The translations under genes and the position numbers were made by a program. DNA of 64,000 bases, taken from assembly GCA_021817605.1 (NCBI GenBank), contig JAKAUN010000002.1:3676-67675 (forward strand), given 5' to 3'. Each line of letters starts with the position of its first letter. Positions within the stretch are counted from its first letter, which is position 1. The notes under the pieces were generated by a model that saw nothing but the letters and a program-made list of their open reading frames with translations, was not told where the DNA came from and ran no database searches. Source of the stretch: Thermoplasmata archaeon (lineage in GTDB: Archaea; Thermoplasmatota; Thermoplasmata; Lutacidiplasmatales; UBA184). Positions 5,546 through 59,693 of this stretch are shown here, piece by piece.

Positions 5546-7273
5546 CTACGGCGCGTCGGCACGGCCGGCAGCGCGGGACGCGCCGTCGAACTCCTCGTGG
5601 AGACGCATGCGACGGCGGGTCCTGTGGTAGCTCACCGCGAAGCGATGCGCCTCGTCGCGCACCGCGCGAAGGAGGAGCATCGGCGGGGAGTTCGGGTTCG
5701 GGCGGATCGGATCGCGTCGGTCAGGCAGGTAGACCTCCTCCTCGCGCTTGGCCAGCCCGATCGCCGGAAGTCGGTCGGCGAGCCCCAGCGCCGCGAGCGA
5801 GGAGAGGGCCGCAGAGAGCTGGCCGGCCCCGCCGTCCACCACCAGGAGGTCGGGGAGACGTTCCTCCTCGGCCAGGCGGCGGAGGTAGCGGCGTCGGACG
5901 ACCTCGGCGATCATGGCAAAGTCGTTGGTCCCGGCGACCGAGCGGATGCGGAAGCGGCGGTACTCCGAGCGCTTGGCCACCCCGCGCTCGAAGACGACCA
6001 GCGAGCCGACGGCCTCGGAGCCCTGGAAGAGCGAGATGTCGGTCCCCTCGATGTGGGTGGGCAGGGTCGGCAGTTCGAGCAGGCTCTGGAGGGCGGCGAG
6101 GACCTCGCGCGGGGCCGGCCGGGCGACGACCTGGTCGACGGTCGCGCGCGCGAGACGCTCGGCGAGGCGGGCGAGCGACGCGTAGCGGCCCGTCGGGCGG
6201 AACTGTACCTCGACCCCCCGCGCGCCGAGAAGCTCGTCGATCGTCACGTCGATCCCCGCGGGCCGCGGCCCCGAGAGGTAGATCCTCCCGGGCAGCTCGA
6301 TCCGGCCGCCGTAGAACTGCGTGAGGAACTGCCGCCAGAGCTCCCCCGGTTCGGGGATGTCGTCCGCCGGCACCGCCATGAGGTGCGGCTCGGTCGCGCG
6401 GACCTCGCCGTCCTCCACGTGGAGAAGGCCGACCGCGACCCGGAGCGTGGACGGCTCGTTGGGATAGGCTAGGGCGAGGACGTCGACCCGTCCGGAGCCG
6501 GGACCGACGACCGACTGGCGCTCGCGCAGCGCCCCGAGGCCGGCGAGGGCGTCCCGGAGGAGACCCGCGCGCTCGAACTCCTCGCGACGGGCGGCCGAGC
6601 GCATCTCGGACTCCACCTCCTGGCGGAGGCCGGCGGTCTCGCCGCGGAGGACCTCGGTCGCCCGGTCGATCTGGGCACGGTAGCCCTTCGGGTCGATCGC
6701 GCCGATACACGGCGCGCTGCAGACCCCGAGGTGGTAGTAGAGGCACGCCGCCTTGGGGAGGCGCACGCACCGCCGCAGCCGGAACAGGTCCCCGAGCAGG
6801 CGCTCGACGCCGCGCGCCTCGCGCACGCTCGTATACGGCCCGAAGAGGACGAGCCCGCGGCGACGGCGCGGGCGGCGGACGAGCACGATCCTCGGGAACT
6901 CCTCCTCGAGGGTGACGGCGAGGTACGGGTAGCTGCGATCGTCCTTGAGGAGGGCGTTGTACGCCGGCTGGTACTGGCGCACCAGGCTCGCCTCGAGCAG
7001 GAGCGCCTCGCGCTCGCTCGCGGTCGGGACGAACTCGACGCTCGCGCTCTTGGCGAGGATCGTCCCGTCCTTCTCGACGCGCGCGCGGAGGTGGTCGAGG
7101 ACCCTCCGCCGAAGGTTGCGCGACTTGCCGACGTAGACGACCTCGCCGGTCGGCGAGCGGAACAGGTAGACTCCCGGCGAATTCGGGCCGGCCTTGAACC
7201 CCTCCTGCTGGACGGCCGCGAGCTCGCTCGCCCGCACGAAGCCGGCGGCCTCGGTCGCCCCGGGCTCGCTCAT
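5546..7273 (-). CDS. uvrC: Excinuclease ABC subunit C
   Basis: Internal ATG at 7273, in frame with ORF 5546..8296. The GIY-YIG motif is present (PGVYLFRSPTGEVVYVGKSRNLRRRVLDH...YQPAYN), followed by a UVR domain, the endonuclease domain and (HhH)2. The start overlaps the uvrA stop (ATGA). Confidence 0.93.
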   Translation of the reverse strand: MSEPGATEAAGFVRASELAAVQQEGFKAGPNSPGVYLFRSPTGEVVYVGKSRNLRRRVLDHLRARVEKDGTILAKSASVEFVPTASEREALLLEASLVRQYQPAYNALLKDDRSYPYLAVTLEEEFPRIVLVRRPRRRRGLVLFGPYTSVREARGVERLLGDLFRLRRCVRLPKAACLYYHLGVCSAPCIGAIDPKGYRAQIDRATEVLRGETAGLRQEVESEMRSAARREEFERAGLLRDALAGLGALRERQSVVGPGSGRVDVLALAYPNEPSTLRVAVGLLHVEDGEVRATEPHLMAVPADDIPEPGELWRQFLTQFYGGRIELPGRIYLSGPRPAGIDVTIDELLGARGVEVQFRPTGRYASLARLAERLARATVDQVVARPAPREVLAALQSLLELPTLPTHIEGTDISLFQGSEAVGSLVVFERGVAKRSEYRRFRIRSVAGTNDFAMIAEVVRRRYLRRLAEEERLPDLLVVDGGAGQLSAALSSLAALGLADRLPAIGLAKREEEVYLPDRRDPIRPNPNSPPMLLLRAVRDEAHRFAVSYHRTRRRMRLHEEFDGASRAAGRADAP

Positions 7274-10128
7274 GGGGCGCGAGCGCGCGCCCGGGGCGCC
7301 GGGCCGTGGCCCACAAGCCCGCTCAGGAACCGACCGGTGTGCGAGCGGCTCTCGCGGGCGACCTCCTCGGGGGTCCCCGAGGCGACGACGTGGCCGCCGC
7401 CCGGCCCGCCCTCCGGACCGAGGTCGATGAGCCAGTCGGCGCTCTTGAGCACGTCCAGATGGTGCTCGATGACGACCACGGTGTTGCCCCCCGCGCGCAG
7501 GCGCAGGAGGACCGAGAGCAACCGCTCGACGTCGGCGAAGTGAAGGCCCGTCGTCGGCTCGTCCAGAAGGTAGAGGGTCCGGCCCGTCGGCGGCTTGGCG
7601 AGCTCGAAGGCGATCTTGATCCGCTGGGCCTCCCCGCCCGAGAGGGTGGTCGCGCTCTGGCCGAGCCGGACGTAGCCAAGGCCGACCTCGCTCAGCAGCT
7701 TGAGCCGCGAGGCGATGCGCCGGTGGTTGGCGAAGAACGCGAGCGCCTCGTCCACGGTCATGTCGAGGACGTCGGCGATCGTCTTCTCCTTGAACGTCAC
7801 CTCGAGGGTCTCGGAGTTGAACCTCTTGCCGTGGCACTCCTCGCAGACGACGTAGACGTCGGGAAGGAAGTGCATCTCGTAGCGCAGCACCCCGTCCCCG
7901 TCGCACGCCTCGCAGCGTCCGCCGGCGACGTTGAAGCTGAACCGCCCCGGCGCGAAGCCACGGGCCTTCGCCTCGGGGAGGCTCGCGAAGAGCTCGCGGA
8001 CCGGGGTCATCACTCCGGTGTACGTCGCCGGGTTCGATCGCGGGGTCCGGCCGATAGGCGACTGGTCGATGAACAGGACCCGGTCGATCGTCTCGATCCC
8101 TTCGATGAACTCGTGCTGTCCGGGACGCTCCCGCCCCAGACCGAGGTGGCGGCGGACCGCCTTGTAGAGGATCTCCTCGAGGACCGTGGACTTCCCGCTT
8201 CCCGAGACCCCCGAAAGGGCCACGAGGAGGCCGAGCGGGATGCGGACGTCCTCTCCCTTGAGGTTGTGCTCCGTGGGGCCGTGGATCGTCAGCCACCGGC
8301 CGGTCGGCCGCGCCCGGGTCGCGGGGACGAGGATCGACCTCCGTCCCGAGAGGAACTCGGCGGTGAGCGAGCGCGGGGTGCCTCCGACCGACTCGGGCGG
8401 GCCGGCGTAGAGGAGCTCGCCGCCGTGGACGCCGGCTCCCGGTCCCAGGTCGAGCAACCAGTCGGCCTCGCGCATCGTCATCTCGTCATGCTCGACGACC
8501 AGCAGGGTGTTGCCCAGATCGCGCAGCGTCTTGAGGGTCGAGAGCAGGCGCGCGTGATCGCGGGGATGGAGCCCGATCGACGGCTCGTCCAGGATGTAGA
8601 GGACACCGACGAGCCCCGAGCCGATCTGCGTCGCGAGCGCGATGCGCTCCGCCTCGCCTCCCGAGAGCGAGCCGGAGGCACGGTCGAGCGAGAGGTAGTT
8701 GAGCCCGACGTTCTCGAGGAAGGAGAGGCGGGAGCGGATCTCCTTGACGACCGGTCCCACGATCTTGAGGTCCCTCTCGGCCAGCCGAAGGTCGCGGAAC
8801 AGCTCGATGGCGTCGCTGACGGTCATCGAGGCGATCTCGGCGACCGACCGACCCTCGACCGTCACGGCGAGGCTCGCCGGTTTTAGACGACGACCGGCGC
8901 ACGAGCGGCAGGTGACGAAGGAGAGGAAGCCGAGGTAGTACTCCTTCGCCCCCTCGCTCTTGGTCGTGCGCCACCGCCTCTCGACCGCCGCGACCAGGCC
9001 TTCCTTGCGCCAGCCGCCGACCCACCAGTGCTCGGGCCCCCGGGCGGAGGGGACGGCGGCGCGCTCGGAGCCGTACATGAGCGCCTTCCACCCCTTCTCG
9101 GAGAGCTCGCGGATCGGACGACGGGAGTCGGAACCGAACTCCCGCGAGAACCTCGCGAGCGACTCGGAGGCCGGCGTGAGCCCCCAGACGGCGATCGCGC
9201 GTCCGATCGGCTTGTCCTTGTCCGGGACGATCCGGTCCGGGTCGCCGTGGAGCGTGGCGCCGATGCCGAGGCATTCCGGGCAGGCGCCGATGGGGTTGTT
9301 GAACGAGAACATCCGCGGCGTGAGCTCCTCGATGGAGAAGCCGCAGGTCGGGCAGGCCCGGCGGCTCGAGAAGGTCGTGCGCTCCCCGCCCGCCCGGCGG
9401 ACGACGAGGAGCCCGTCGCCGAGCTCGCGTGCGAGCGCGACGGACTCGGAAAGCCGGCTCTCCTCCTCGGGGCCGACCTCGAGGCTGTCGACGAGCACCT
9501 CGATCGTGTGCTTCTTGTTCTTGCCCAGTCGGATCTCCGGGCCGGGGAGGCGGACCTCGACACCATCGATGACGAAGCGCCGGTAGCCCTGGGCCCTCAG
9601 CTTGGCGAGGAGCTCGCGATGCTCGCCTTTCATCGCCCGGACGACCGGGGCGATGAGGTCGACCTTCTCGCCGCGGGCGGTGCGGGAGATCGCCTCGACG
9701 ATCCGGTCGATCGACTGGGGAGCGATCTCCTCTCCGTCGTTCGGGCAGTGCGGTACTCCGACCCGGGCGAAGAGGAGCCTCAGGTAGTCGTAGATCTCGG
9801 TGACGGTCCCGACCGTCGAGCGGGGATTGCGGCTGCCGGCACGCTGCTCGATCGCGATCGCCGGCGAGAGCCCCTCGATCGAGTCGACCTCGGGCTTGTC
9901 CATCTGGCCCAGGAACTGGCGGGCGTAGGCCGAGAGGCTCTCGATGTAGCGGCGCTGCCCCTCGGCGTAGAGGGTGTCGAAGGCCAGCGACGACTTTCCC
10001 GAGCCGCTCACTCCGGTGACGACGACGAACTTGCCTCGGGGGATGTCGACGGAGATGTTCTTGAGGTTGTGCTGGCGTGCGCCGCGGACCCGGATCCCGT
10101 CAAGGTCGGCGGCCATGGACGTTCTCAC
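7270..10128 (-). CDS. uvrA: Excinuclease ABC subunit A
   Basis: 952 aa. Sequence reads [61 protein letters not shown], with two ABC ATPase modules ([25 protein letters not shown]) and zinc-finger Cys pairs. ATG 10116 (MAADLDG) is an alternative start. Confidence 0.95.
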
Positions 10129-17498: not shown

Positions 17499-17987
17499 CT
17501 ACGGAACCTCCCCGCGCCGACGGGAGCGGCGCCGCTCCTCGGTCCTCCGTCGCCCCTCCTCGAACATGGCGCGCTCCTCCTCCGTGAGGGGGTGAAGCGG
17601 CGGAACCGCGGTCGGGCGGCCGTCCCGGTCGACCGCCACCATCGTGACGAACGCGTCGCCGACCTTGCGGACCGGCCCACCCTCGACCGCGCGCGAGGAG
17701 ATGCGCACCACCACTTCCATCGAGGTCCGGCCGGCGAACGTGAGCTCGCCGGAGAAGTCGACGACCTCGCCGACGTGCACCGGAGCGAGGAAATCGACAC
17801 GGTCGAAGGACGCCGTCACGCACGTCCGCTGGGCATGGCGGCTCGCCGCGACGTAGGCGACCCGGTCGACCTCGGCGAGGATCACCCCGCCGAAGACGTT
17901 CCCCATGAAGTTCGCGTCGCTCGGGACCATGAGACGAACGACCGACGCGCGGCTGGCGGCTACGGTTCCCGCGGACGGTTCGCTCAA
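17499..17987 (-). CDS. Acyl-CoA thioesterase (hotdog fold, YciA/Acot-like)
   Basis: MVPSDANFMGNVFGGVILAEVDRVAYVAA...FLAPVHVGE is typical of hotdog thioesterases. TTG start. It abuts the mbf1 start. Confidence 0.78.
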   Translation of the reverse strand: MSEPSAGTVAASRASVVRLMVPSDANFMGNVFGGVILAEVDRVAYVAASRHAQRTCVTASFDRVDFLAPVHVGEVVDFSGELTFAGRTSMEVVVRISSRAVEGGPVRKVGDAFVTMVAVDRDGRPTAVPPLHPLTEEERAMFEEGRRRTEERRRSRRRGEVP

Positions 17988-18346
17988 CGACCCAGATCAC
18001 CCCGGCTTCGGGCAGGGCTCCTCAACGGTCCCCCGCTAAAATTGTTTCCGCGGGACCGGGGGCTTCCCGAACGGACCGCCACGACGACGGCCTCGGAGCG
18101 GCGCGGCCTGGGCGTGGGACGGACACCGCCGGCCCACTCCGAGCCCGAGGGCGAACGCGAGAAGCCCCCGAGCCCGCGCCGGGGCCCCCCGGCGGGAACC
18201 GCCGGAGGACGGGTCGGCCGTCCGGCCGGAATCCGACCCCGTGCCGCGACGGGGCGGGAGAGGGCTCGGGACGTGGGCGCTCTTCTCCGCGCCCGAGCCG
18301 CCGGTCCGAGAGACCGCCGCGCTCCCGGTGAGCCTCCTGGTGACTG

Positions 18347-21300
18347 CTAGGGCACTTCCTTGCGGTCTGCGCACGCCGCGTCCGTGGGACGGTCCTCGTC
18401 TCCCGCGGTCTGCCCCCCAAGAGCAGCTCCCGACCGGGAGGCGCCCGCCGCGGCCAGGAGCAACGTCGTCGCGAGAGCGGCTGCCGCGGGGAGCGCGAGC
18501 CCGGCACCGCCCACCGGCCCGCCGACCGACAACGCGGACGGAAGGCGGGGGAGCGCGGGGGGGTTCATGGTGACGTTGACGAGCTGCCTCGGAGACGGCG
18601 CGTGGAGCACCGCAATCGTTCCGCTGGCAGGGGTCGGGGCCTGCGTGTTCGCGACCCCCACGGTGTAGGTGTAGTTGCCTATCGGCAAGAGGAAACGGAT
18701 GACGCCCTTGCCGGCGAGCTTCGAAAGGGTCGTGGGGAAGGTGAGCGCCGGGGTCGAGCCGGTCGCGATCGTGACCGTCCAGGTCGCCCCAGCCTGTAGG
18801 CCCTTCTCGCGGAAGACGATCGCCTCGGTCAGTAGGCGGAACTTCACCACCTTGGTGAGGGCATGCTTGGGAACGTGGAACCCACCCTTGGCCGGCAGGA
18901 CCTTGTACTCCGCTCCCGGGCCGGCGATCGCGAAGTGGAAGGCGGCGCCGGTCGGTAGGGAGAACGATATCGAGGTGCCGGTCGATGTCTTCGACTGGCC
19001 GGCGGGTCCGCCGTGGGGGAACGCGGGGGTGAGATCAACTCCCCAGGTCGACCCCGCGTACTTCTGGAACTTCGCTAGCGAGCTCTGGTTGAAGGTGACC
19101 GTCTGGAGGTGCCCGAAGATGACCGTCCACGTGGCGACCCCCGACAGCGAGTAGGTCGGGGTCCCGTAGGTCTGGTTGGGCGACCCCGGACCCGCGATCC
19201 TGGCGACCCCCCATCCTGCGGGCCCACTGATGTTGTAGACGAGGGCGCCTGCCGCCTCCGAGAACGAGACCGAACCTGTCGACCCGGTCCCGGTCGTCAC
19301 CGTGGTGTCGCTCCTCACGATCCCGAGAACATCCACCGACCAGAGCGCCCCGGCCGGGAGGTGGAGCTCCCGGAAGCGCAAGGTGTGCCCGAGCGACGCC
19401 GTGAAGACGATGGGGATGTTCACGGGGCTCCCGCTGATCGAGAACTGCCCGCCGTAGAGGCTCGCGGCGAACCCCGGCACGAAGGGGATGGTGAAGTTGT
19501 AGCTGATGTTTTGGGCGTCCATGACCATCGCGTCGGGAGCCGGGGCGGTCGCCGTCACCGTGCCCGGAGGCGTGCCGAAAGCATGGCCGATCGAGAGCGA
19601 CCAATTCGTCCCGTTCGGGAGACCGGTCTCCGTGAACGTGGCGAGTTCGCCGGCTAGCAGGCTCGAGTTCGTCACCGCGTAGGCCTTCGACCAGTAGACG
19701 CTGGTCCCCGCGAACACGTTCTCTTGGAGGGTGATCGTGGTGAGCCCGTTGAAGCAGTCCGTCGCCTCGATGGACGCCGTCGGCACGACACTGGCGGCGC
19801 AGCTAGCCGCCGACTGGCTCGCGCCGTTGGACCCGGACGTGCTGGTCCCGATCAGCACGTTGTGGGCTGCCATCTGCGCCGTCCCGATGAGGAAGATCCC
19901 CGGCGCCCCGCTCGCCGCGTTGTTGACCACGTTCGCATCCACGGTGGTGATTCCCGTGCCTTGCGGCTCGGTCACGATGCCGTAGGCGAGGCTGTCGGTC
20001 ACGGTGTTGCCGTCGATCGTCGCCGGGGCGCCCGCGATGCCCGCGTAGCTCGAGGTGTACATCGCATACAAGATTCCGACCGAGCTCGAGCCCACGTGGT
20101 TCGCCTCGATGTTGCACGTCAAAGCCCCCGGAGCACATCCGGCCCAGATCGCCGACGATTGGGTCTGGGTGAAGTAGGAGCCGCCGGTCTCGAAGGAGAA
20201 GCCGCGGACGGTGTTGCCTGAGACGGTCACCGAGCTACCCCAGACGATGATCCCGCCCTCGGAGGCCGCCGTATCGGCTGCCCCTGGGCCGAGAACCGTG
20301 TTGCCGATCACCGAGAAGGTCCCGGTGGGCTCGACCGACGTTGCGGGGAAGATGTCGCCCGCCTCGATCCCCACCGGGCCGCCGGGGCCGGCCCCGCCGG
20401 CTCCGAGCGTGACCGTCGAGGATTCGATCGTGGCGCTCGTCAGGGCGGGGGCCACGATGATCCCGTTGACAGCGCCCGTTCCGAGCGTCGTCGCGTCCTT
20501 CACCGTGACCCCGTTCGCTTGGACCCCGATCGAGTTGCCGTCGCTCGGGTAGCCCGTCGTGTTGATCGTGAAACTCGCCCCGTTGAGCGTGCTGTCGGCC
20601 CAGTAGTCCGTAACGTTGCCCGCAAAGCTCGAGCGCAACGTGGCGACCGTGCCGGCTACCGACACCAGGCTGGCGTTCGTCGGGATCCCGCTCGAGCTCA
20701 GCACGAGCTGGCCGGGAGCCGCGTGGACGAACACGAGCACCGGCTCGACCACCGCCGAGCCGCTGACGGAGCCAACACCCGGGGTGATCAGCGTGTTCTC
20801 GTACCACCCGCCAATCGCTCCGATGCCGTAGGAGAACGATCCGTTCTGGAGATCGCCGACGATCGACGCCGGCGCGGGAACGTTGGCCGTGGTGCCGTTC
20901 ATCGTCACGGACCAGTCGAGGCCCGGGGTAAGGCCGCTCTCGGACCACGTAACATGCTCCCCACCCCGCTGGAACGAAGTCGCCGGGTAGGTCGGGAAGG
21001 TCGCCGTCCAGTCCGGCGCGTTCGTCTGAGCGAAGATGTTGGCGTTCAGCGTGACCTCGGTCGCGGGGTTGAAGCAATCGGTGGCCTCGACCGACGCGGT
21101 CGGGATCGTCGAAGCGACGCAGCTCGCCTGACCTTGGAGCGCCCCGTTGGTGCCGGTGGTGTTCGTCCCCAGGAAGACGTTCCCGGTCAGCGAGAAGGTC
21201 CCTCCAATGAGATAGGCGCCTGGGGCGCCGCTGGGAGCACTGGCGAACGTGTTGGACTCGACCAGGGAGACTCCCGCGGCCCCGGTGGGCTCAAGGACCA

Positions 21301-22240
21301 TCCCGTAGGCGAGGCTGTTGGTGATGGTGTTGTGCAGGACCACTACGGCCGATTGAGCGATGCTCCCAAAACCGGAGGTCATGAGGGCGTAGACGATGCC
21401 GATGCCGTTCGTGTTGAGGGTGTTGGAGTTGATGTCGCACGCAGGCGCGCCTACGGCGCAGCCGGCGAGGATCCCCACGGACTGGGTGTCCTGGAACCAT
21501 GAGGAGTAGGTATTCGCACCGGAGGTCGTGGTCGTGTCCAGGGAGAATCCGCTCACCGTGCTGTTGGTGATCGCGACGGAGTTTCCGTAGACGACGATCC
21601 CGGTCTCGCCGGCGGTGCCTCCCGCACCAGGACCGACGACCGTGACCGCGTTCACGACGAAGGTGCCCGTGGGCTCGACCGCCGTGGCCGGGAATACGTT
21701 GCCGAGCTGAATCCCCAGAGCCGTCGTGCTTCCGGCGGCGAGCGTCACCGTCGAGCTTTCGATCGTCGCCGAGGAGGTGACGAGCGAAGGCGCCGCAAGG
21801 ATCCCGTCCGTGCTGCCGCTCGAGATCGTCACGAAATTCTGCACCGTGATGCCGTTCGCCTCGAGGCTGAGAGCCGCGAGGTCGGTGGGATACGCCGTCG
21901 CGTTGACCACGCACCCGGAGCCGTCCAGCATACTGTTGGCAAACGAATCAGAAAGGTTGCCCGAGAAGCCCTCGAGCACCGTCACCACCGAACCGTTGAC
22001 GGAGACCGCTGTCGGGTCGCTCGAGACCCCTCCGGCAGAGATGGTGACCGTCCCGAGACTACCGGCGGAGGGGCAGGCGGCCAAGGTGGAGAAGGCAGGC
22101 CCTCCCGGCGCCGATCCGACGGAGGACCCGAGGAAGGGGCCCGCGCCGGCAATCGTGGGGGCAAGGGCGAACCCCACCACCGCGAGGAGGCCGACCAGGG
22201 CCGCCCGGACCACCACGCGTCGAGGGGCGCTCATAGCCAC
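18347..22240 (-). CDS. Large secreted, C-terminally membrane-anchored surface protein (S-layer/adhesin-like; parallel beta-helix modules plus ESGLPxGxxWSV-type beta-sandwich repeats)
   Basis: 1297 aa. It has a signal peptide (MAMSAPRRVVVRAALVGLLAVVGFALAPTIAGAG) and many N-x-S/T sequons. Gly/Thr/Ser/Val-rich beta-helix-like segments occur twice. Four modules have the form ESGLTPGLDWSV / ETGLPNGTNWSL / ELHLPAGALWSV / EKGLQAGATWTV. A C-terminal TM helix (GLALPAAAALATTLLLAAAGA) is followed by a short charged tail. A GAGGGGTG Shine-Dalgarno-like element precedes the ATG. Confidence 0.85.
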   Translation of the reverse strand: MAMSAPRRVVVRAALVGLLAVVGFALAPTIAGAGPFLGSSVGSAPGGPAFSTLAACPSAGSLGTVTISAGGVSSDPTAVSVNGSVVTVLEGFSGNLSDSFANSMLDGSGCVVNATAYPTDLAALSLEANGITVQNFVTISSGSTDGILAAPSLVTSSATIESSTVTLAAGSTTALGIQLGNVFPATAVEPTGTFVVNAVTVVGPGAGGTAGETGIVVYGNSVAITNSTVSGFSLDTTTTSGANTYSSWFQDTQSVGILAGCAVGAPACDINSNTLNTNGIGIVYALMTSGFGSIAQSAVVVLHNTITNSLAYGMVLEPTGAAGVSLVESNTFASAPSGAPGAYLIGGTFSLTGNVFLGTNTTGTNGALQGQASCVASTIPTASVEATDCFNPATEVTLNANIFAQTNAPDWTATFPTYPATSFQRGGEHVTWSESGLTPGLDWSVTMNGTTANVPAPASIVGDLQNGSFSYGIGAIGGWYENTLITPGVGSVSGSAVVEPVLVFVHAAPGQLVLSSSGIPTNASLVSVAGTVATLRSSFAGNVTDYWADSTLNGASFTINTTGYPSDGNSIGVQANGVTVKDATTLGTGAVNGIIVAPALTSATIESSTVTLGAGGAGPGGPVGIEAGDIFPATSVEPTGTFSVIGNTVLGPGAADTAASEGGIIVWGSSVTVSGNTVRGFSFETGGSYFTQTQSSAIWAGCAPGALTCNIEANHVGSSSVGILYAMYTSSYAGIAGAPATIDGNTVTDSLAYGIVTEPQGTGITTVDANVVNNAASGAPGIFLIGTAQMAAHNVLIGTSTSGSNGASQSAASCAASVVPTASIEATDCFNGLTTITLQENVFAGTSVYWSKAYAVTNSSLLAGELATFTETGLPNGTNWSLSIGHAFGTPPGTVTATAPAPDAMVMDAQNISYNFTIPFVPGFAASLYGGQFSISGSPVNIPIVFTASLGHTLRFRELHLPAGALWSVDVLGIVRSDTTVTTGTGSTGSVSFSEAAGALVYNISGPAGWGVARIAGPGSPNQTYGTPTYSLSGVATWTVIFGHLQTVTFNQSSLAKFQKYAGSTWGVDLTPAFPHGGPAGQSKTSTGTSISFSLPTGAAFHFAIAGPGAEYKVLPAKGGFHVPKHALTKVVKFRLLTEAIVFREKGLQAGATWTVTIATGSTPALTFPTTLSKLAGKGVIRFLLPIGNYTYTVGVANTQAPTPASGTIAVLHAPSPRQLVNVTMNPPALPRLPSALSVGGPVGGAGLALPAAAALATTLLLAAAGASRSGAALGGQTAGDEDRPTDAACADRKEVP
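19391..20728 (-). repeat. Intragenic tandem duplication, unit 2 (about aa 505-950 of the surface protein)
   Basis: Second copy of the beta-helix plus one GLPxGxxW module. The similarity is visible at DNA level too, for example gtcccggtgggctcgaccgacgttgcgggg versus gtgcccgtgggctcgaccgccgtggccggg. Boundaries are approximate. Confidence 0.75.
20741..22078 (-). repeat. Intragenic tandem duplication, unit 1 (about aa 55-500 of the surface protein)
   Basis: Collinear with unit 2 at an offset of about 445 aa. One example is ATIESSTVTLAAG..FPATAVEPTGTF..VSGFS versus ATIESSTVTLGAG..FPATSVEPTGTF..VRGFS. A second is SCVASTIPTASVEATDCFN versus SCAASVVPTASIEATDCFN. Boundaries are approximate. Confidence 0.75.
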
Positions 22241-22418
22241 CCCTCGCTTAGGTCGACCCGTTCGAACCGCGCAGAACCGCTTCGGGATTCGGGAGCAAAC
22301 ACCATCTCCGCTACCTTACCTTAGATTTGAGAGGGTCAGCTGAATAAATACCAGTTGCCCCCCGGGCCAAGGACCGGCGGTCGGCGTCCGCTTTTCGGCC
22401 CTCGGGAAGCAACAACGC

Positions 22419-22427
22419 CTAAATAGG
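22419..22427 (+). promoter_or_regulatory. Putative TATA box (CTAAATAGG) for the tuf-rps10 operon
   Basis: TAAATAG element about 38 bp upstream of ATG 22461, in a locally AT-richer spacer. Confidence 0.55.
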
Positions 22428-22460
22428 GGTGATTTGTCGGCGCGCCCGGAGCGCAAATCC

Positions 22461-23738
22461 ATGGCACAGAAGCCCCACCTCAACATCGTGTTCATTGGCC
22501 ACGTCGACCACGGGAAGTCCACGACCGTCGGCCGGCTGCTCCTGGATACCGGCTACATCCGCCAGGAGGAGATCGACAAGTTCCGCGCCGAGGCCGAGGC
22601 GAAGGGCAAGGCGACGTTCGAGTTCGCCTGGGTGATGGACGAGCTCAAGGAGGAGCGCGAGCGCGGTGTGACGATCGACATCGCCCACCGACGGTTTGAC
22701 ACCCAGAAGTACTACTTCACCATCATCGACGCCCCCGGCCACCGCGATTTCGTCAAGAACATGATCACGGGGACGAGCCAGGCCGATGCGGCGGTCCTCG
22801 TCTGCTCCGCGGCCGAAGGGATCCAGGAGCAGACCCGCGAGCACATCTTCCTCTCCCGTACGCTCGGGGTAGCCCAGCTCATCTGCGCCGTCAACAAGAT
22901 GGACCGCCAGGAGGTCGCCTACTCCGAGGCGAAGTACGAGACGATCAAGGAAGAGCTCACCAAGCTGCTCAAGAACGTCGGCTTCAAGGTCGACCAGCAG
23001 GTGACGTTCGTCCCGATCTCGGCGTTCAAGGACGACAACATCAACAAGGCGAGCCCCAACATGTCCTGGTTCAAGGGCCCGACCCTGCTCCAGGCGCTCG
23101 ACGCGCTCAAGGTCCCCGAGAAGCCTACCGATAAGCCTCTCCGCCTCCCCGTCCAGGACGTCTACACGATCACCGGGATCGGAACGGTCCCCGTGGGCCG
23201 GGTCGAGACCGGGAAGCTCAAGCTCGGCGACAAGATCACCTTCATGCCCAGCGGCAAGACCGGCGAGGTGAAGACCATCGAGATGCACCACGAGGCGGTC
23301 CCCGAGGCGATCCCGGGCGACAACATCGGCTTCAACGTCCGCGGGATCGACAAGAACGACATCCGCCGCGGGGACGTCGCCGGGCCGGCCTCCAACGCCC
23401 CGACGGTCGTGGAGAGCTTCATCGCCAACATCCAGGTGCTCAACCACCCGAGCGTGATCACGGTGGGCTACACACCGGTGTTCCACTGCCACACGGCGCA
23501 GGTCGCCTGCGAATTCACCGAGCTCCAGAAGCGACTCGACCCGAAGACCGGGCAGGTCGCCGAGGAGAACCCCCAGACCTTGAAGACGGGGGACGCGGCG
23601 GTGGTGAAGATCACCCCGAAGCGCCCGCTGGTCCTCGAGAAGTACAAGGAGTTCCCCCAGCTCGGCCGTTTCGCCGTGCGCGACATGGGCCAGACCGTCG
23701 CCGCCGGCGTCGTCGTCGACGTCAAGAAGCGCGCCTAG
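22461..23738 (+). CDS. tuf: Translation elongation factor EF-1 alpha
   Basis: [35 protein letters not shown] and NKMD GTPase motifs, with full-length collinearity to aEF-1alpha. The track start at 22434 is an upstream TTG extension. Confidence 0.96.
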
Positions 23739-44202: not shown

Positions 44203-45912
44203 CTAGGTCGACATCCCCGGCGCGCTCTTGAGCGCCCGGATCTTGTAGTACTCGGGGTCGACGATGACCTCGCCGTTGACGCCCATCGTCTCGATCGTCT
44301 TCAGCTTGAGGCCGCCCTGCGACTTCGCCCGCTGCCAGTCGGGGATCGGGATCGAGAACTTCTTCTCGACCTCGGTCCGGTAGATCGGCCCGGAGTTGTA
44401 CGAGCAGAACGGGATGACCCGCCCGTCCGGGACCGCGTAGTGGATGTCGCAGCGCATCAGCCGCTGGATGTCGTAGTCGTAGGCGTCCTGGAAGTGCATG
44501 TTGCCGATGTAGAGCGTCCTCCAGGTGAACTTCGCGACGGCCTCCTTGTTGCCCTCGGTGAAGATCGAGGCGATCAGCCGCACGCAGTTCTTCTCCGTCA
44601 CGCCCTCCGGCGCCTTGGTGAAGTCGAAGTACTTCGCGACGTCGTGGAGGAGCCGCGCCCCGGCGACCACCGTCCGCACGCGCGAGAACCGCGCGTCGCG
44701 GTACTTCTCGATCATCCCCTCGACGTTCTCGAAGAAGCCGTCGACGTCCATGAACCGCGGCAGCGGGGTGATCTTCTCCCCGTCCTTGGAGACGAAGGCG
44801 AAGGTCGCGCAGCCGCAGCCCGGGTGCGTCGTGAGGGTCATCTTCTCCTCGCCGTGGATGATCGAGGCGAGCTCGGAGATCGGCGCGACCGACGGCACGG
44901 GGAAGAAGTCGGACTTGTCGAAGGGCCCGTCGGTGCAGAGGATGCGGACGAGGTCGGACTGGGTGAACCGCATCTGGAAGCGGTCCTTGTCGGGGATGCG
45001 GGCGGTCAGGGCGACCGGCTGGAAGTTGACGCCGCGCACGACGTCAAGGTTGTCGATCGCGAACTTGACCGTCGGCCAGATCTCCTTCTCGTTGAACCCG
45101 CCGACCAGCGTCGGGACGAGCACGACGGAGAGAGGCTTGTCCGGCTTACCCGCGGCGAGCTCGGAGGCCGGCGAGTGGGTCTCGCGGGCCGCCTGGATCG
45201 CCTTCTGCTTCACCTTGAACAGCGGCACACCACGGACCTTGCGGTAGATCTCGTCGTCCAGACCGTCGAACTGCAGGTAGAGGGTGTGCAGGCCCGCGTC
45301 CCGGGAGGCCTGGGCGAAGCCGGGCTCGTTGGCCACGCGGATCCCGTTGGTCGCGACCTGGATCTGCTTGAAGCCGAGGTCGCGGGACATCGACACCGCG
45401 TCTAGGAACAGCGGAGAGAGGGTCGGCTCGCCTCCGGAGAACTGGACCGCGACGGTGCCGACCGGCTTCTGCTCGCGCAGGGTCTTCAGCATGAAGTAGA
45501 TCTGCTCGCGGGTGGGCTCGAAGACGTAGCCTGCGGCGTTCGCGTTCGCGAAGCAGACAGGGCACTTGAGATTGCAGCGGTTGGTCAGGTCCACCAGGGC
45601 GAGCCCGGTGTGCGACTTGTGGTGGCTGCACATCCCGCAGGTGGTGGGGCAGCCGCGGAACTTGTCGTAGTAGGGGTTCTCGTAGCCGACCCCGTCGTGG
45701 GCATAGACCTCCATCCGCAGGTAGAAGTCCACGTCGTTGGAGATGATGTCCCAGAAGTAGCCGTGGGCTCGGCAGGTCTTCTCCATGATGACCCGGCCGT
45801 CTTTCTCGCGGACGATGGCGGGAATGACCTTGATGCACTCCGGGCAGACCGAGGCGGTCTTCCGGGGGAGGCCCCGCGGGGCCTGGAACTCCTTCATCAC
45901 TCGTGCCGGCAT
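44203..45912 (-). CDS. Radical SAM protein of the tetraether lipid synthase (Tes / GDGT-MAS)-like family
   Basis: 569 aa. It has an N-terminal zinc-ribbon-like CPECIKV...CRAHG, CPTTCGMCSHH, a radical SAM cluster (TNRCNLKCPVCFA), GGEPTL and a long C-terminal domain. The Tes assignment rests on my recollection of that family's architecture. GGAGG lies 8 nt upstream of the ATG. Confidence 0.7.
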   Translation of the reverse strand: MPARVMKEFQAPRGLPRKTASVCPECIKVIPAIVREKDGRVIMEKTCRAHGYFWDIISNDVDFYLRMEVYAHDGVGYENPYYDKFRGCPTTCGMCSHHKSHTGLALVDLTNRCNLKCPVCFANANAAGYVFEPTREQIYFMLKTLREQKPVGTVAVQFSGGEPTLSPLFLDAVSMSRDLGFKQIQVATNGIRVANEPGFAQASRDAGLHTLYLQFDGLDDEIYRKVRGVPLFKVKQKAIQAARETHSPASELAAGKPDKPLSVVLVPTLVGGFNEKEIWPTVKFAIDNLDVVRGVNFQPVALTARIPDKDRFQMRFTQSDLVRILCTDGPFDKSDFFPVPSVAPISELASIIHGEEKMTLTTHPGCGCATFAFVSKDGEKITPLPRFMDVDGFFENVEGMIEKYRDARFSRVRTVVAGARLLHDVAKYFDFTKAPEGVTEKNCVRLIASIFTEGNKEAVAKFTWRTLYIGNMHFQDAYDYDIQRLMRCDIHYAVPDGRVIPFCSYNSGPIYRTEVEKKFSIPIPDWQRAKSQGGLKLKTIETMGVNGEVIVDPEYYKIRALKSAPGMST

Positions 45913-55182: not shown

Positions 55183-55845
55183 CTAGCACTTCCCTACGAG
55201 GCTCAGCAGAGCCATGTCGAGCTCAAGAACGTTCACGAAGGACTCGCCGAGGTAGGGAAGGGGTGGGGAGCTAATGTGGGCGTTCACCAGCGCGAGGACC
55301 TCCGCGACGGAGAGGTTGTTCTCCTGGGCGACCCGGGGGACCTGGACGAGGACGGCCTCGGGGACGAGGTCGGGGTCGACGGAGGAGGCGGACGGAGCGG
55401 CGTACCAGAAGGGGACGGTCGCATTGACCGAGAGGTTGCCGTAGAGACGCATGTAGTCGATCGTCTCGTTGAGCAGGCGGCCAAGAGCCGGGTCGCTCGG
55501 CCCGGGAGGGACCGCGGCGCCGAGAGTGGTGTTGTAGTCGGTGAGCGACGGACGGGCCCAGAACAGCGACGGGCCGAGCGTGCCGGCCGAGAGGTTCTGC
55601 GCGATGTCGACCGAGCCGACCACGGTCCCGTTCGGGCAGCGCAGCAGCGAGCCGCCGGCGCTCCCCGGGACCAGGAGCTCCGCCACGGCGCTCACCGCCA
55701 GCGGGTAGACGACGCCGGAGAGGAGGAGGGCGAGGACGAGGAAGATCCCGGCGGCCCGTGCGTGGGTCCTCAGCCGGTGCTCGGTCGGGACCGCCGGCTC
55801 GGTGGGCGGGCCGAGAGGCGCCGGCGGGCCCCGCGGGGCGCTCAC
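55183..55845 (-). CDS. kdpC: Potassium-transporting ATPase subunit C
   Basis: GTG 55845 overlaps the kdpB TGA (GTGA). A TM helix (AAGIFLVLALLLSGVVYPLAV) is followed by ...SSVDPDLVPEAVLVQVPRVA..., the KdpC core. Confidence 0.83.
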   Translation of the reverse strand: MSAPRGPPAPLGPPTEPAVPTEHRLRTHARAAGIFLVLALLLSGVVYPLAVSAVAELLVPGSAGGSLLRCPNGTVVGSVDIAQNLSAGTLGPSLFWARPSLTDYNTTLGAAVPPGPSDPALGRLLNETIDYMRLYGNLSVNATVPFWYAAPSASSVDPDLVPEAVLVQVPRVAQENNLSVAEVLALVNAHISSPPLPYLGESFVNVLELDMALLSLVGKC

Positions 55846-57977
55846 GGGCCTCCGAGGGGAAGGTGGCGGACGACGAGCCGGGCGACCGTGGCGAACGCGG
55901 GCTCGCGGACGAGCCAGGCGAGGAAGTGGTAGCAGAGCCAGATCCCCACGAACGCGCTCACGAGGCCTCCCAGGCCGTAGCTCACCAGGTTGCGCCGCAA
56001 CAGGTCGATCGCGCTCCGAGGCCGGAACGGCACGCCGGCGAGCGCGAGGGGGATGAGCAGGGGGATGATGAGCGCGTTGAAGACGAGGGCCGCGAGCACC
56101 GCGAGGTACGGGTTGGAGAAGCCGAGCAGGTTGAGCAGCGCGATCCCCGGTAGCGCGACGGCCCCTCCGCCCAGGAAGATCGCCGGGATGATGGCGAAGT
56201 ACTTCGCCACGTCGTTCGTGATCGAGAACGTGGTCAGCGCCCCGCGCGTGATGAGCAGCTGCTTGCCGATCGAGACGACCTCGATGATCTTGGTGGGGTC
56301 GTTGTCGAGGTCGACCATGTTGCCGGCCTCCTTCGCCGCGCTGGTCCCCGAGTTCATGCACAGGCCCACGTCCGCCCGTGCGAGCGCGGGGGCGTCGTTG
56401 GTCCCGTCGCCGGTCATCGCCACGAGCCTCCCGGCGCTCTTCTCCCGCTGGATGAGCTCGAGCTTGCTCTCGGGCTTCGCCTCGGCGACGAACTCGTCGA
56501 CGCCGCTCTCCTCGGCGATCGCCGCCGCGGTGAGACGGTTGTCGCCGGTGCACATGATCGTCCGGATCCCCATCGTGCTGAGCTCGTGGATCCGGTCGCG
56601 GATGCCCGGCTTCACCACGTCCTTGAGGATGACGAGGCCGACCACGCGCTTGTTGACGGCGATCGCCAGAGGGGTCATCCCCTTGCGCGCGGCCTCCGCG
56701 GCGGCAGAACGGGTCGGGGCCGGGAGAGGCGCCCCGTAGGCCTCGATCGAGCTGAGCGCCCCCTTGAAGACCTCCGTGCCGTCGGCGAGCGTGAGCCCGC
56801 TCATGCGCCGCTCGGCGGTGAACGGCATCACCTTGTAGGAGCCCGGCTCCAGGCGACGCGAAGGAGCGCTGCGCCGGGCCGCGAGGCGCACGATCGAGCG
56901 GCCCTCGGGGGTCTCGTCCAGGGTCGAGGAGAGCAGCGCGGCCTCGAGCAGCTCGGACGCCGGCACGTCGGGGGCCTGCACGAACTGCACGGCGAGACGG
57001 CTCCCCACCGTGATCGTCCCGGTCTTGTCGAGGATGAGCACGTCCAGATCGCCGGAGGCCTCAACCGCCTTACCGGATTTGGCGATGACGTTCGCCCGCG
57101 CCACACGGTTGACCCCCGAGATGCCGATCGCCGGGAGGAGCGCTCCGATGGTCGTCGGCATGAGGCAGACGAACAGGGCGATGATCGTCGCGAGGTCGAC
57201 CGTGACCTCGCCGGAGAAGTTGGCGAGGTAGACGAAGCTCAGGACGACCACGAAGAGCGTGACCGTGAACGCCGCGAGGAGGACCGAGAGCGCGATCTCG
57301 CTGGGCGTCGGCTCGCGTCCGAGCCCTTCGACCAGGCGGATGAGCCTATCGAGGAACGATTCGCCGCGCGCGGCGCTCACCCGCACGCGGACGGTCCCCT
57401 GCAACACCCGGGTCCCGCCGAGGACGCTCGTCTTGTCGCCTCCGCTCTCGCGGGTGACCGCCTCGGACTCGCCGGTCATCATCGACTCGTCGATGAGCGC
57501 CACGCCCTCGATGACGTCACCGTCCATCGGGATCGGTTCGCCGGGGGCGACCTCGACCGTGTCCCCGACATGCAGCACGTCCGAGGGGACCCAGCGGAGC
57601 GCGCCGTCCGGCAGGACCTGGCGGGCGCGGATCCCGCTGCGGATCGCCCGCAGGCTCTCGGCCTGCGCGCGACCCTGCGCCTCGGCGATCGCTTCGGCGA
57701 GGTTGGCGAACCAGACCGTCAGGAACAGGATGATCGCGACGGCGACGTAGTAGCCGGCCTGGTAGCTTGCCGCGATGTCCGGGAACGCCCGCGGGTAGAG
57801 GGTGACCAGGCTCACGAAGAGGAAGAGGACGAAGACGCAGAACATGAGCGGGTGGCGCATCTGGCGGCGCAGCCCGAAGTGCTTGACCGAGTCGACCAGG
57901 ACCCGACGGACCGAGGTATGCGGCCTACGCCGCACCGAGACGCGGGCGCCGGGTTCGACGGGATCGGGGGCGGCCAC
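55842..57977 (-). CDS. kdpB: Potassium-transporting P-type ATPase subunit B
   Basis: 711 aa. DKTGTIT phosphorylation motif, MTGESE, MCTGDN and MTGDGTNDAPALA. Confidence 0.95.
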   Translation of the reverse strand: MAAPDPVEPGARVSVRRRPHTSVRRVLVDSVKHFGLRRQMRHPLMFCVFVLFLFVSLVTLYPRAFPDIAASYQAGYYVAVAIILFLTVWFANLAEAIAEAQGRAQAESLRAIRSGIRARQVLPDGALRWVPSDVLHVGDTVEVAPGEPIPMDGDVIEGVALIDESMMTGESEAVTRESGGDKTSVLGGTRVLQGTVRVRVSAARGESFLDRLIRLVEGLGREPTPSEIALSVLLAAFTVTLFVVVLSFVYLANFSGEVTVDLATIIALFVCLMPTTIGALLPAIGISGVNRVARANVIAKSGKAVEASGDLDVLILDKTGTITVGSRLAVQFVQAPDVPASELLEAALLSSTLDETPEGRSIVRLAARRSAPSRRLEPGSYKVMPFTAERRMSGLTLADGTEVFKGALSSIEAYGAPLPAPTRSAAAEAARKGMTPLAIAVNKRVVGLVILKDVVKPGIRDRIHELSTMGIRTIMCTGDNRLTAAAIAEESGVDEFVAEAKPESKLELIQREKSAGRLVAMTGDGTNDAPALARADVGLCMNSGTSAAKEAGNMVDLDNDPTKIIEVVSIGKQLLITRGALTTFSITNDVAKYFAIIPAIFLGGGAVALPGIALLNLLGFSNPYLAVLAALVFNALIIPLLIPLALAGVPFRPRSAIDLLRRNLVSYGLGGLVSAFVGIWLCYHFLAWLVREPAFATVARLVVRHLPLGGP

Positions 57978-57980
57978 GGA

Positions 57981-59693
57981 CTAGCCGACCCCCACGATCT
58001 GGGCGAGAGGCCCCAGCGCCATCACCGGCAGGAATACCAGCGCCGTGACGACCACGACGAAGAGCGCCAGGTAGACCGCGAAGGTGCCCGTGGCGGTGTT
58101 GAGCGTCCCGGGGCCCTGCGGCAGCGTCGCCTCTCCGGCGAAGTAGCCGCCCACGCGAAGCATCACGTAGATCGGGACGAACCGACCGAGGAGCATCACG
58201 AGGCCGCCGACCACGTTGAAGTAGGGGGTCGTGTCGTTGAAGGCGTTGGACGAGAGCGCCGAGCCGTTGTTCGCCGACTCGCTCGCGAACTCGTAGAGGA
58301 CCGAGCTGAAGGTGTGCGCCGTCACTCCTATCGATGCCCCGCCCACGGAGACCCAGCCGCCCACGACGGCGATGGAGAACGGGACCAGGATGAGCGCCGG
58401 GTGCAGGATGAGGGCGAGGGCCGCCCAGCGCACCTGGCTCGTCCCGATCTTCTTGCCCAGGTACTCGGGGGTCCTCCCGACCATGAGGCCGCCGACGTAG
58501 ATCGCCAGCACCGTGAACACGAGCAGCATGGCAAACCCGGTCCCGTCGCCCCCGGGGGTCGCCTGGGTGAACATGCCGAAGAGCAGGACGAGCTGGGCGA
58601 TCGGGGAGATCGCCCCGATCTGCATCGAGTTCGCGCCGACGTTGTTGTAGACGCTCACCACCTGGAAGAACGCCGTCTCCGGAAGGCTCCAGCGTGTCTC
58701 CTGGCCGACCGGATAGCCGTTGGTCGACGGACCGAGGCCGGGGATGCCCCCGAGGAGGGGGTTGGCGGCGGCCTGGTAGGCGACGAAGAGGCCCACCGCG
58801 ATCGCGACGATCAGCACGATGACGGCCACGAAGGGCCACGCTTCGGCGCGTCGGCGCACCATCGTCCCGAAGGCGAACGGCGTGGAGAACGGCACGAGGA
58901 GCATCAGGAACGTCCCGAGCAGCAGGCTCGCCGAGGACGGGTTGGCAAGCGGGCTCGCTGCGTTCGCGGTGTAGTAGCCCCCTCCGTTCGTCCCGAGGAG
59001 GCTGATCGCCTGGAACGAGGCGACCGGGCCGAGGTAGATCGTCTGGGTCCCTCCGGTGAGCGGGTGGGCCCTCACCGCTGCGACAAGCGTCTCGGGCACC
59101 CCAAGAGCGACAAAGACGAGCGCCCCGAGCACCGCGACCGGAAGGAGGATGCGCGTGATCGAGCGGGTGAGGTCGACGTAGAAGTTGCCGAGACGCCCGT
59201 CCTTGCGGACGAAACCCCGGATCATCGCGGCGGCGACGGAGAGGCCGGTCGCCGCCGAGAGGAAGAGCGCGAGCTGCCAGGCGATCATCGCGGAGCCAAG
59301 GCTCAGCTGCGACTCGTTGACGAAGTGGGTGAAGTCGGTGTTGGTCGTGAAGCTCGCCGCGGAGTGGAAGGCGAGGTCCCACGGCATCCCGGGCGCGCCG
59401 GTCGGGTCGAGCGGGAGCGCGTGCTGGAGGAGGAAGAACAGGAAGAGGAAGGCGAACGTCCCCCCGTTGACGAACAGGACGGCGACCATGTACTCGCCGG
59501 CGCGCATCGGCCGACGCGGCGAGGTGCCGAGGAGCCGGTAGACCGCCCGCTCGAGCGGGAGGAGGAGGCTGTCGCCCGCCACGGGCCGCTCGAGGTAGAC
59601 CTTCCCGACGTAGCGGCCGAACCAGGGAGCGACGGCGAGCACGACCCCCAGAAGGACGAGGACGTCCCAGAGCGACTGGAGGGCGAAGGCCAT
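57981..59693 (-). CDS. kdpA: Potassium-transporting ATPase subunit A
   Basis: 570-aa polytopic protein. GTNGGGYYTANAASPLANP and NNGSA are KdpA selectivity-filter-like segments. Confidence 0.95.
   Translation of the reverse strand: MAFALQSLWDVLVLLGVVLAVAPWFGRYVGKVYLERPVAGDSLLLPLERAVYRLLGTSPRRPMRAGEYMVAVLFVNGGTFAFLFLFFLLQHALPLDPTGAPGMPWDLAFHSAASFTTNTDFTHFVNESQLSLGSAMIAWQLALFLSAATGLSVAAAMIRGFVRKDGRLGNFYVDLTRSITRILLPVAVLGALVFVALGVPETLVAAVRAHPLTGGTQTIYLGPVASFQAISLLGTNGGGYYTANAASPLANPSSASLLLGTFLMLLVPFSTPFAFGTMVRRRAEAWPFVAVIVLIVAIAVGLFVAYQAAANPLLGGIPGLGPSTNGYPVGQETRWSLPETAFFQVVSVYNNVGANSMQIGAISPIAQLVLLFGMFTQATPGGDGTGFAMLLVFTVLAIYVGGLMVGRTPEYLGKKIGTSQVRWAALALILHPALILVPFSIAVVGGWVSVGGASIGVTAHTFSSVLYEFASESANNGSALSSNAFNDTTPYFNVVGGLVMLLGRFVPIYVMLRVGGYFAGEATLPQGPGTLNTATGTFAVYLALFVVVVTALVFLPVMALGPLAQIVGVG

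Follow-up and report, generated by a model that had tools for sequence, protein, structure and literature searches.

A predicted surface protein from a soil Thermoplasmata archaeon built on a tandem duplication of a β-helix and β-sandwich unit

The stretch of DNA analysed here, a window of 64,000 nucleotides from contig JAKAUN010000002.1 (assembly GCA_021817605.1) of an uncultured Thermoplasmata archaeon, carries at 18347..22240 on its reverse strand one intact open reading frame (ORF) of 1297 codons counted from a GTG. The encoded protein is a tandem duplication of a composite unit, in which a right-handed parallel β-helix head is followed by a β-sandwich module with the motif GLPxGxxW, and three further modules of this type precede the C-terminus. 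On balance we favour reading it as a membrane-tethered, glycosylated coat component or adhesin, whose heads would serve as non-catalytic binding or structural elements. All parts of the gene and protein described below lie on the reverse strand unless stated otherwise.

A preliminary description of this DNA had reported two collinear copies of a large module, and a quantitative self-alignment bears this out. The units span residues ~58-506 and ~507-951. A BLASTP comparison of aa 41-505 against 506-960 with composition-based statistics gave a single collinear alignment, which pairs aa 63-502 with 510-945 over 452 columns at 43% identity and 64% positives (E=3e-94). The Smith-Waterman score of unit A against unit B is 892, compared to 97±13 when the second unit is shuffled 200 times (z=62), and at the DNA level the two copies are 64% identical. 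On these grounds the internal repeat is real and old. The shared strings quoted in the preliminary description are all present in the protein, while its estimate of 50-60% identity between the units was too high. A search of 5.8 billion clustered proteins yielded just five further full-length homologues, with 39-44% identity, and all five have the two-unit architecture. This indicates that the head and module were duplicated as a unit before the known family members diverged, in line with the old age first proposed. A fused misassembly can be excluded since the five homologues carry the same architecture and the identical protein is encoded on three independent contigs. The A and B copies do not form separate clades. 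In one of the homologues, P0002 (locus L003 8001-11834 / L007), the protein's own units are 91% identical over ~150 columns and 32-55% identical elsewhere, a difference that indicates recent intragenic gene conversion between its tandem copies.

The head of unit A (aa 58-424; 20969..22069) consists of an N-terminal cap and a right-handed parallel β-helix of about 10 rungs, and the head of unit B (aa 507-862; 19655..20722) is a second, paralogous β-helix. An AlphaFold2 (AF2) model of unit A (aa 58-506), computed from a 12-sequence alignment, is all-β: ~10 three-stranded rungs lead into a sandwich of seven strands (predicted local distance difference test 87.6, predicted template modelling score 0.90). 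The rungs stack as three-stranded right-handed coils, the defining property of the right-handed parallel β-helix. Rung motifs are likewise present, with invariant Asn at unit positions 216, 247, 273, 297 and 344 (spacing 24-47) and many invariant Gly. Modelled fold and motifs thus agree with the NosD-like parallel β-helix proposed earlier, with a Pfam match that stays below threshold: for Beta_helix (PF13229) the protein scores 20.2 bits against a cut-off of 25.9, NosD (PF05048) gave no match above its gathering score either, and a Pfam-A search returned only sub-threshold Beta_helix and RIF5_SNase_2. The homologue P0005 passes the Pfam β-helix threshold (72 bits), and hhalign matches the unit profile to the NosD-like heads of paralogues with 93% probability (E=2.7e-7). 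Neither the protein nor the profiles of unit and module found anything significant among PDB sequences even at E≤10, and NCBIfam gave no match at all, the NosD equivalog TIGR04247 included. The protein differs from NosD/CASH-type PbH1 proteins (PF05048, PF13229) in scoring below the Pfam threshold, in its genomic context, with no nosZ, nosF or nosY around the gene, and in its additional conserved disulfide-stapled loops. The Cys pairs 261/268 and 374/389 of unit A recur as 702/709 and 814/829 in unit B and are conserved in the family, as the preliminary description had noticed for the two units.

A hidden Markov model (HMM) trained on the modules that end the two units detects five related GLPxGxxW modules of ~80 aa. 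One follows each unit and three others precede the C-terminus; the preliminary description had listed one at the end of each copy and two to three beyond. M1 (aa 425-506; 20723..20968) closes unit A and matches at 5e-34, and M2 (aa 863-950; 19391..19654) closes unit B with a match over 863-948 at 1e-29 and an AF2 model. M3 (aa 951-1046; 19103..19390) is divergent (FRELHLPAGALWSV; HMM 951-1020, 4e-5) and was also modelled with AF2. M4 (aa 1047-1138; 18827..19102) is degenerate and has lost the GLP motif; its HMM match over 1063-1135 is marginal (0.058), and its AF2 model is all-β. M5 (aa 1139-1228; 18557..18826), with FREKGLQAGATWTV, matches over 1139-1215 at 1e-7 and was modelled by AF2 with lower confidence. 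The hallmarks of the module are the motifs F-x-E-x-G-L-P-x-G-x-x-W and N-G-[ST]-Y-x-Y, and the modelled fold, a seven-stranded prealbumin-like sandwich, supports the earlier view of these modules as β-sandwiches.

An alignment of 19 modules conserves E10, G12, L13, W19, N42, G43, G54, G64 and G70 and has no conserved Lys. A CnaB-type Lys-Asn/Asp isopeptide bond can therefore be excluded on the residues present, whereas such a bond is typical of CnaB. The module likewise has no sequence similarity to the CnaB/transthyretin-like stalk domains known from pilins of Gram-positive bacteria and from the B-repeats of MSCRAMMs (GBS52, SpaA, Spy0128, SdrD and CnaB2). Neither the five modules nor module-rich relatives matched Cna_B or CarboxypepD_reg, with sub-threshold CarboxypepD_reg, PEGA and NOMO in P0009 only. 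Neither Pfam-A nor NCBIfam has a model of the module, it has no counterpart among solved structures, and the GLPxG motif turned up no publication in a literature search.

The distribution of the two parts of the unit is very uneven. We scanned 1.84 billion representatives of clusters at 50% identity with a profile of 12 units and without recourse to a word index. The full unit was found in only about ten clusters, and the last ~77 profile positions, which correspond to the module, in at least 4,669, with 1,278 of these at E≤1e-30. The stalk module is a Thermoplasmatota-specific family absent from the curated libraries. The number of tandem copies reaches 44 in the 3,552-aa protein P0010; matches of DUF1214, Cas9_b_hairpin and Copper-bind on it were rejected as repeat-summation artefacts because no stretch is individually significant. 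The module is also attached to P0017, a protein of the S53 type annotated 'protease pro-enzyme activation domain', and occurs in P0175, a fragment of a 'thermopsin precursor' from mine drainage. This wide use, together with the hydrophobic C-termini described below, speaks for a generic stalk outside the cell. With a word-indexed search the module profile found only eight short fragments, of value only for the labels 'thermopsin precursor' and Thermoplasmatota that they bear. A β-helix-only profile found a single fragment, P0050, probably because low-complexity words swamped the index, a result uninformative on family size. With the Gly/Thr/Ser-rich β-helix profile the word-indexed search missed the query's own family, so that its negatives for low-complexity surface proteins do not amount to absence.

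Among the relatives of the protein, P0007, P0012, P0028, P0086, P0117 and P0128 have an extra N-terminal NosD-like β-helix before one or two units. Since P0128 and P0002 share one 810-kb contig, paralogues with one, two or three β-helices coexist in a single genome. All genomic matches come from soil 'Thermoplasmata archaeon' metagenome-assembled genomes (MAGs). The loci have no conserved neighbourhood, apart from MFS and MOSC genes downstream of P0002 and P0003. In other MAGs the homologues adjoin further module-bearing genes (L003 13892-15367; L006 3262-4107; L008 6271-7239) and so stand in small surface-protein gene clusters; the gene studied here stands alone, with no further copy of unit or module in its 64-kb window.

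Composition and termini point to the cell envelope. Charged residues (DEKR) make up 6.7% of the ectodomain, compared to 22-28% in cytoplasmic proteins of the window, Ser and Thr together reach 23%, and the isoelectric point is 4.6. A signal-peptide-like segment occupies aa 3-33 (22142..22234), in which an RR/R n-region is followed by the hydrophobic core AALVGLLAVVGFALAP and then TIAGAG. Its hydropathy on the Kyte-Doolittle (KD) scale is 2.47, and equivalent hydrophobic N-termini are conserved in homologues. From the low charge, the high Ser and Thr content, the acidic isoelectric point, this N-terminus, the conserved Cys pairs and the conserved glycosylation sequons we infer an exposed extracytoplasmic envelope protein. 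The surface-exposed topology assigned earlier gains further support from module relatives whose anchors combine a transmembrane (TM) helix with RRR. Sequons of the type N-x-S/T number 20, against 13.5±3.1 in shuffles (p=0.03), and five of them (N95, N113, N466, N542 and N911) are shared by three or more of the five homologues. At about 1.5x expectation, this is far from the dozens of sequons and the heavy N-glycosylation of the preliminary description.

At the C-terminus, an Ala/Leu-rich hydrophobic segment (aa 1246-1267; 18440..18505), AGLALPAAAALATTLLLAAAGA, is a putative degenerate membrane anchor, and is followed by a short, net acidic tail that starts with SRS (aa 1268-1297; 18350..18439). 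The position of the segment matches the TM and RRR anchors of the module relatives P0012 and P0005, and the tail as a whole (AGLALPAAAALATTLLLAAAGA-SRS...) looks like a degenerate version of them. A strongly hydrophobic segment lies within the last 60 residues of 87 of the 153 module proteins. RRR(R) follows the hydrophobic segment in the 32 of these 87 tails that were inspected, often with [F]LGLPG-x-GY in front. The complete tripartite tail, '[F]LGLPG-x-[ET]GY' with a TM helix of ~20 aa and RRR(R), was seen, for example, in P0032, P0053, P0054, P0066, P0030 and P0012, and resembles in its layout a sorting signal of the sortase/archaeosortase type. For archaeosortase-type CTERM signals (PGF-CTERM and relatives), NCBIfam gave no match in the tail of our protein and only sub-threshold generic ones in the tails of relatives.

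In the arrangement we propose, the gene product would be a type-I, N-glycosylated cell-surface protein of a high-GC soil archaeon, exported by means of a Sec-type signal peptide and retained in the membrane through the weak C-terminal hydrophobic segment. The three C-terminal CnaB/transthyretin-like β-sandwich modules would form a stalk. Beyond it, two rigid NosD-like right-handed β-helix heads, each ~5 nm long and each with its own β-sandwich module, would extend outwards, and at full extension the protein might reach ~25-30 nm from the membrane (2×5 nm + 5×4 nm). The heads would offer non-catalytic binding or structural surfaces for the glycans of neighbouring coat proteins or for soil polymers. 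The protein would then act as one component of the outer coat or as an adhesin, not as a lattice-forming surface-layer (S-layer) protein, and the adhesin-like character first suggested for it remains, in the form of an adhesin-like or coat protein, the best description.

The gene itself probably starts two codons inside the ORF. Gene callers on three independent contigs and assemblies used the ATG at 22234, which gives the 1295-aa protein P0001 and a coding sequence at 18347..22234 including the stop at 18347-18349. This ATG is the likelier start compared to the GTG at 22240 because it lies 3 nt after a Shine-Dalgarno-like element, GAGGGGTG (22238..22245). The ORF of 1297 aa described earlier is accordingly intact as reported, with a likelier product of 1295 aa. 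A TATA-box-like AT-rich element, TATTTATT (22343..22350), is found 109-116 nt upstream of the ATG, so that both upstream signals mentioned in the preliminary description, an AT-rich box at about 100 nt and a ribosome-binding element, were located. Its position suggests a leader of ~85 nt for the surface-protein gene; this putative 5' leader has no stable structure, being less folded than its shuffled controls (z=+2.27). A spacer of 226 nt separates the gene from the divergent EF-1alpha (ATG about 22461), which has its own TAAATA at about 22420-22425 on the forward strand, about 36-41 nt upstream of its ATG, and which is followed by rpS10. The surface-protein gene is monocistronic. Downstream on the same strand lie genes for a 4HBT thioesterase and a helix-turn-helix (HTH) protein, then OTCase on the opposite strand.

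Between the stop codon and the thioesterase gene there is a non-coding gap of 359 nt (17988-18346) with 77% GC, unusually long for a compact archaeal genome and with a T-run/AATTTTA at about 18040. It gave neither a coding-frame signal nor an Rfam match, and an Rfam scan of 17900-22500 was equally negative. Other genes of the window include the kdpA-kdpB pair of a potassium-transporting ATPase (55845-59693), UvrA (7273-10128) and an archaeal LonB protease (2-1648), all on the reverse strand. These are housekeeping genes, and no envelope-biogenesis or glycosylation function is encoded near the surface-protein gene.

Several observations weigh against a tethered protein with non-catalytic heads. 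The Ala-rich AGLALPAAAALATTLLLAAAGA segment has a KD hydropathy of 1.87 and no basic stop-transfer sequence, AF2 models no helix there, and the orthologues P0002 and P0003 end right after the last module without an anchor. Of the C-terminal TM anchor and acidic tail described earlier, the hydrophobic segment and the net acidic tail are indeed present, but the anchor is weak or degenerate. Given this weakness and the ends of the two orthologues, tethering may work in another way, or the protein may be released. As to the heads, most of their top structural neighbours are enzymes, the acidic or polar residues E189, D251, Q253, E317, E385 and D388 are invariant in the family, and GTSxxGSNGAxQG...C forms a conserved disulfide-stapled loop that might serve as an active site. 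With such residues and loop in both units, and with a stalk module that carries an S53-type protease and a thermopsin fragment and hence displays extracellular enzymes, the protein might be a cell-surface carbohydrate-active enzyme (a polysaccharide lyase, hydrolase or epimerase) with one or both helices catalytic and the modules as tether. We consider this chief rival reading unlikely. No motif or sequence membership in the catalytic β-helix families (PL1/3/6/9, GH28/87/110, AlgE/AlgG) was found in Pfam, NCBIfam or, even at E≤10, PDB searches, most invariant unit positions are Gly, Asn, Pro or Cys, as is typical of structural rungs, and no sugar-uptake or sugar-catabolic genes adjoin the gene. 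A binding or structural role is preferred because the heads lack a catalytic-family signature.

The preliminary description had also raised the possibility of the main envelope protein. As the principal lattice-forming S-layer glycoprotein, the protein would use its duplication as a pseudo-dimer building block, like the tandem DUF1608 of Methanosarcina. It is large, predicted to be exported, low in charge and rich in Ser and Thr, with conserved sequons, and combines a tandem-duplicated body with a C-terminal hydrophobic segment. Its monocistronic gene, next to EF-1alpha, is preceded by a TATA-like box of its own, its leader is long and unstructured and its Shine-Dalgarno element strong, and some Thermoplasmata (Picrophilus and the acid mine drainage plasmas) have S-layers with predicted genes (PMC3750248). 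The codon bias, however, is among the weakest of 18 window genes and, as an indirect proxy, argues against very high expression: the G+C content at third codon positions (GC3) is 0.883, the codon adaptation index (CAI) 0.63 and the effective number of codons 37, compared to a CAI of 0.83 and a GC3 of 0.953 for EF-1alpha. Together with the paralogues in one genome and the lack of homology to S_layer_N/C, DUF1608, SlaA/SlaB or halobacterial csg in Pfam, NCBIfam and PDB sequence searches, this leaves a main S-layer role unsupported. Neither the C-terminal anchor nor the genomic position is conserved among orthologues, and several Thermoplasmatales have no S-layer and an unordered protein coat instead (PMC12448462). 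We therefore rate this role as decidedly improbable.

Codon usage bears equally on a recent origin of the gene, which the preliminary description had considered as a lineage-specific acquisition. Its GC3 is the lowest of the 18 genes, as the less G/C-ending codons noticed there imply, but the deficit is small, as the other 17 range over 0.897-0.968. Recent transfer, a lineage-specific accessory role or a chimeric assembly could account for this low value, for the local GC of 0.65-0.68 over the gene, for the restriction of the full unit to about 10 cluster representatives and for the unconserved genomic context. Yet the GC3 of 0.88 falls within the window range of 0.84-0.97, if at its margin, the GC dip follows from first-position and amino-acid composition (G+C at first codon positions 0.57), three independent assemblies contain the identical protein, and the same architecture occurs in five other MAGs, with all relatives in the Thermoplasmata. 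The composition deviates too little to speak for transfer, and this explanation, rejected on codon usage and the independent contigs, is very improbable. The strongest codon bias in the window belongs to a radical-SAM protein with an HMPTM-type zinc ribbon (44206-45912, reverse strand; GC3 0.968, CAI 0.81); being comparable to that of EF-1alpha, it suggests high expression.

A coat component or adhesin of the kind we favour has precedents in archaea. Parallel β-helices of the pectin-lyase fold combined with Ig-like domains are found in the surface proteins MJ1_0451, MJ1_0701 and MJ1_0776 of Nanobdella aerobiophila (bioRxiv 10.1101/2023.10.27.564410) and in the HQ1205-type variable surface proteins of Haloquadratum walsbyi, putative integral membrane proteins (PMC4535781). 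Like our protein as we predict it, they are large (about 900-1600 aa), exported and sequon-bearing, pair a parallel β-helix with an Ig-like or carboxypeptidase-regulatory-like sandwich, and have putative functions; the likeness is one of architecture, separate from any relationship in sequence. The present protein differs in the tandem duplication of the whole β-helix and sandwich unit, in its Thermoplasmatota-specific stalk module and in its 20 sequons, compared to 36-52 in Nanobdella. Because the basic architecture has already been described, it is not a new kind of surface protein; what is its own are the duplication of a composite unit and the uncatalogued stalk module.

A comparison can also be made with the S-layer proteins of Methanosarcina, which consist of tandem DUF1608 domains with a C-terminal anchor and form a lattice. 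Common to both are a signal peptide, a tandem large all-β unit and a C-terminal tether. The DUF1608 fold is not known to be related to that of our protein, and lattice formation has been shown for Methanosarcina, whereas our protein is known from its sequence. Closer in lineage is the dense, unordered exterior glycoprotein layer (EPL) of ~20 nm that covers Thermoplasmatales without an S-layer and whose components are unknown (PMC12448462). Both belong to the class Thermoplasmata, and the thickness of the EPL is of a similar order to the estimated reach of ~25-30 nm; the EPL was imaged on Thermoplasmatales, and our protein comes from the genes of an uncultured soil lineage. It is possible, if doubtful, that the GLPxGxxW module proteins, including ours, are building blocks of such an unordered ~20-nm exterior layer that replaces the S-layer in Thermoplasmata. 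Type-I anchored stalks of tandem modules would then display heads such as β-helices or proteases, and duplicated NosD-like heads would cross-link the coat through their neighbours' glycans. The frequent '[F]LGLPG-x-GY + TM + RRR' tail might act as a sorting or processing signal that is new and particular to this lineage.

The protein overturns no current view and represents a fairly ordinary kind of archaeal envelope protein. It offers a clean case of an ancient tandem duplication of a composite β-helix and sandwich unit, with gene conversion still at work in one orthologue. If our reading holds, the little-known surface proteome of soil Thermoplasmata would gain a defined member with a modelled structure, and the protein's very large stalk-module family outside Pfam, NCBIfam and the PDB would provide candidates for the non-crystalline coat of S-layer-less Thermoplasmatales.

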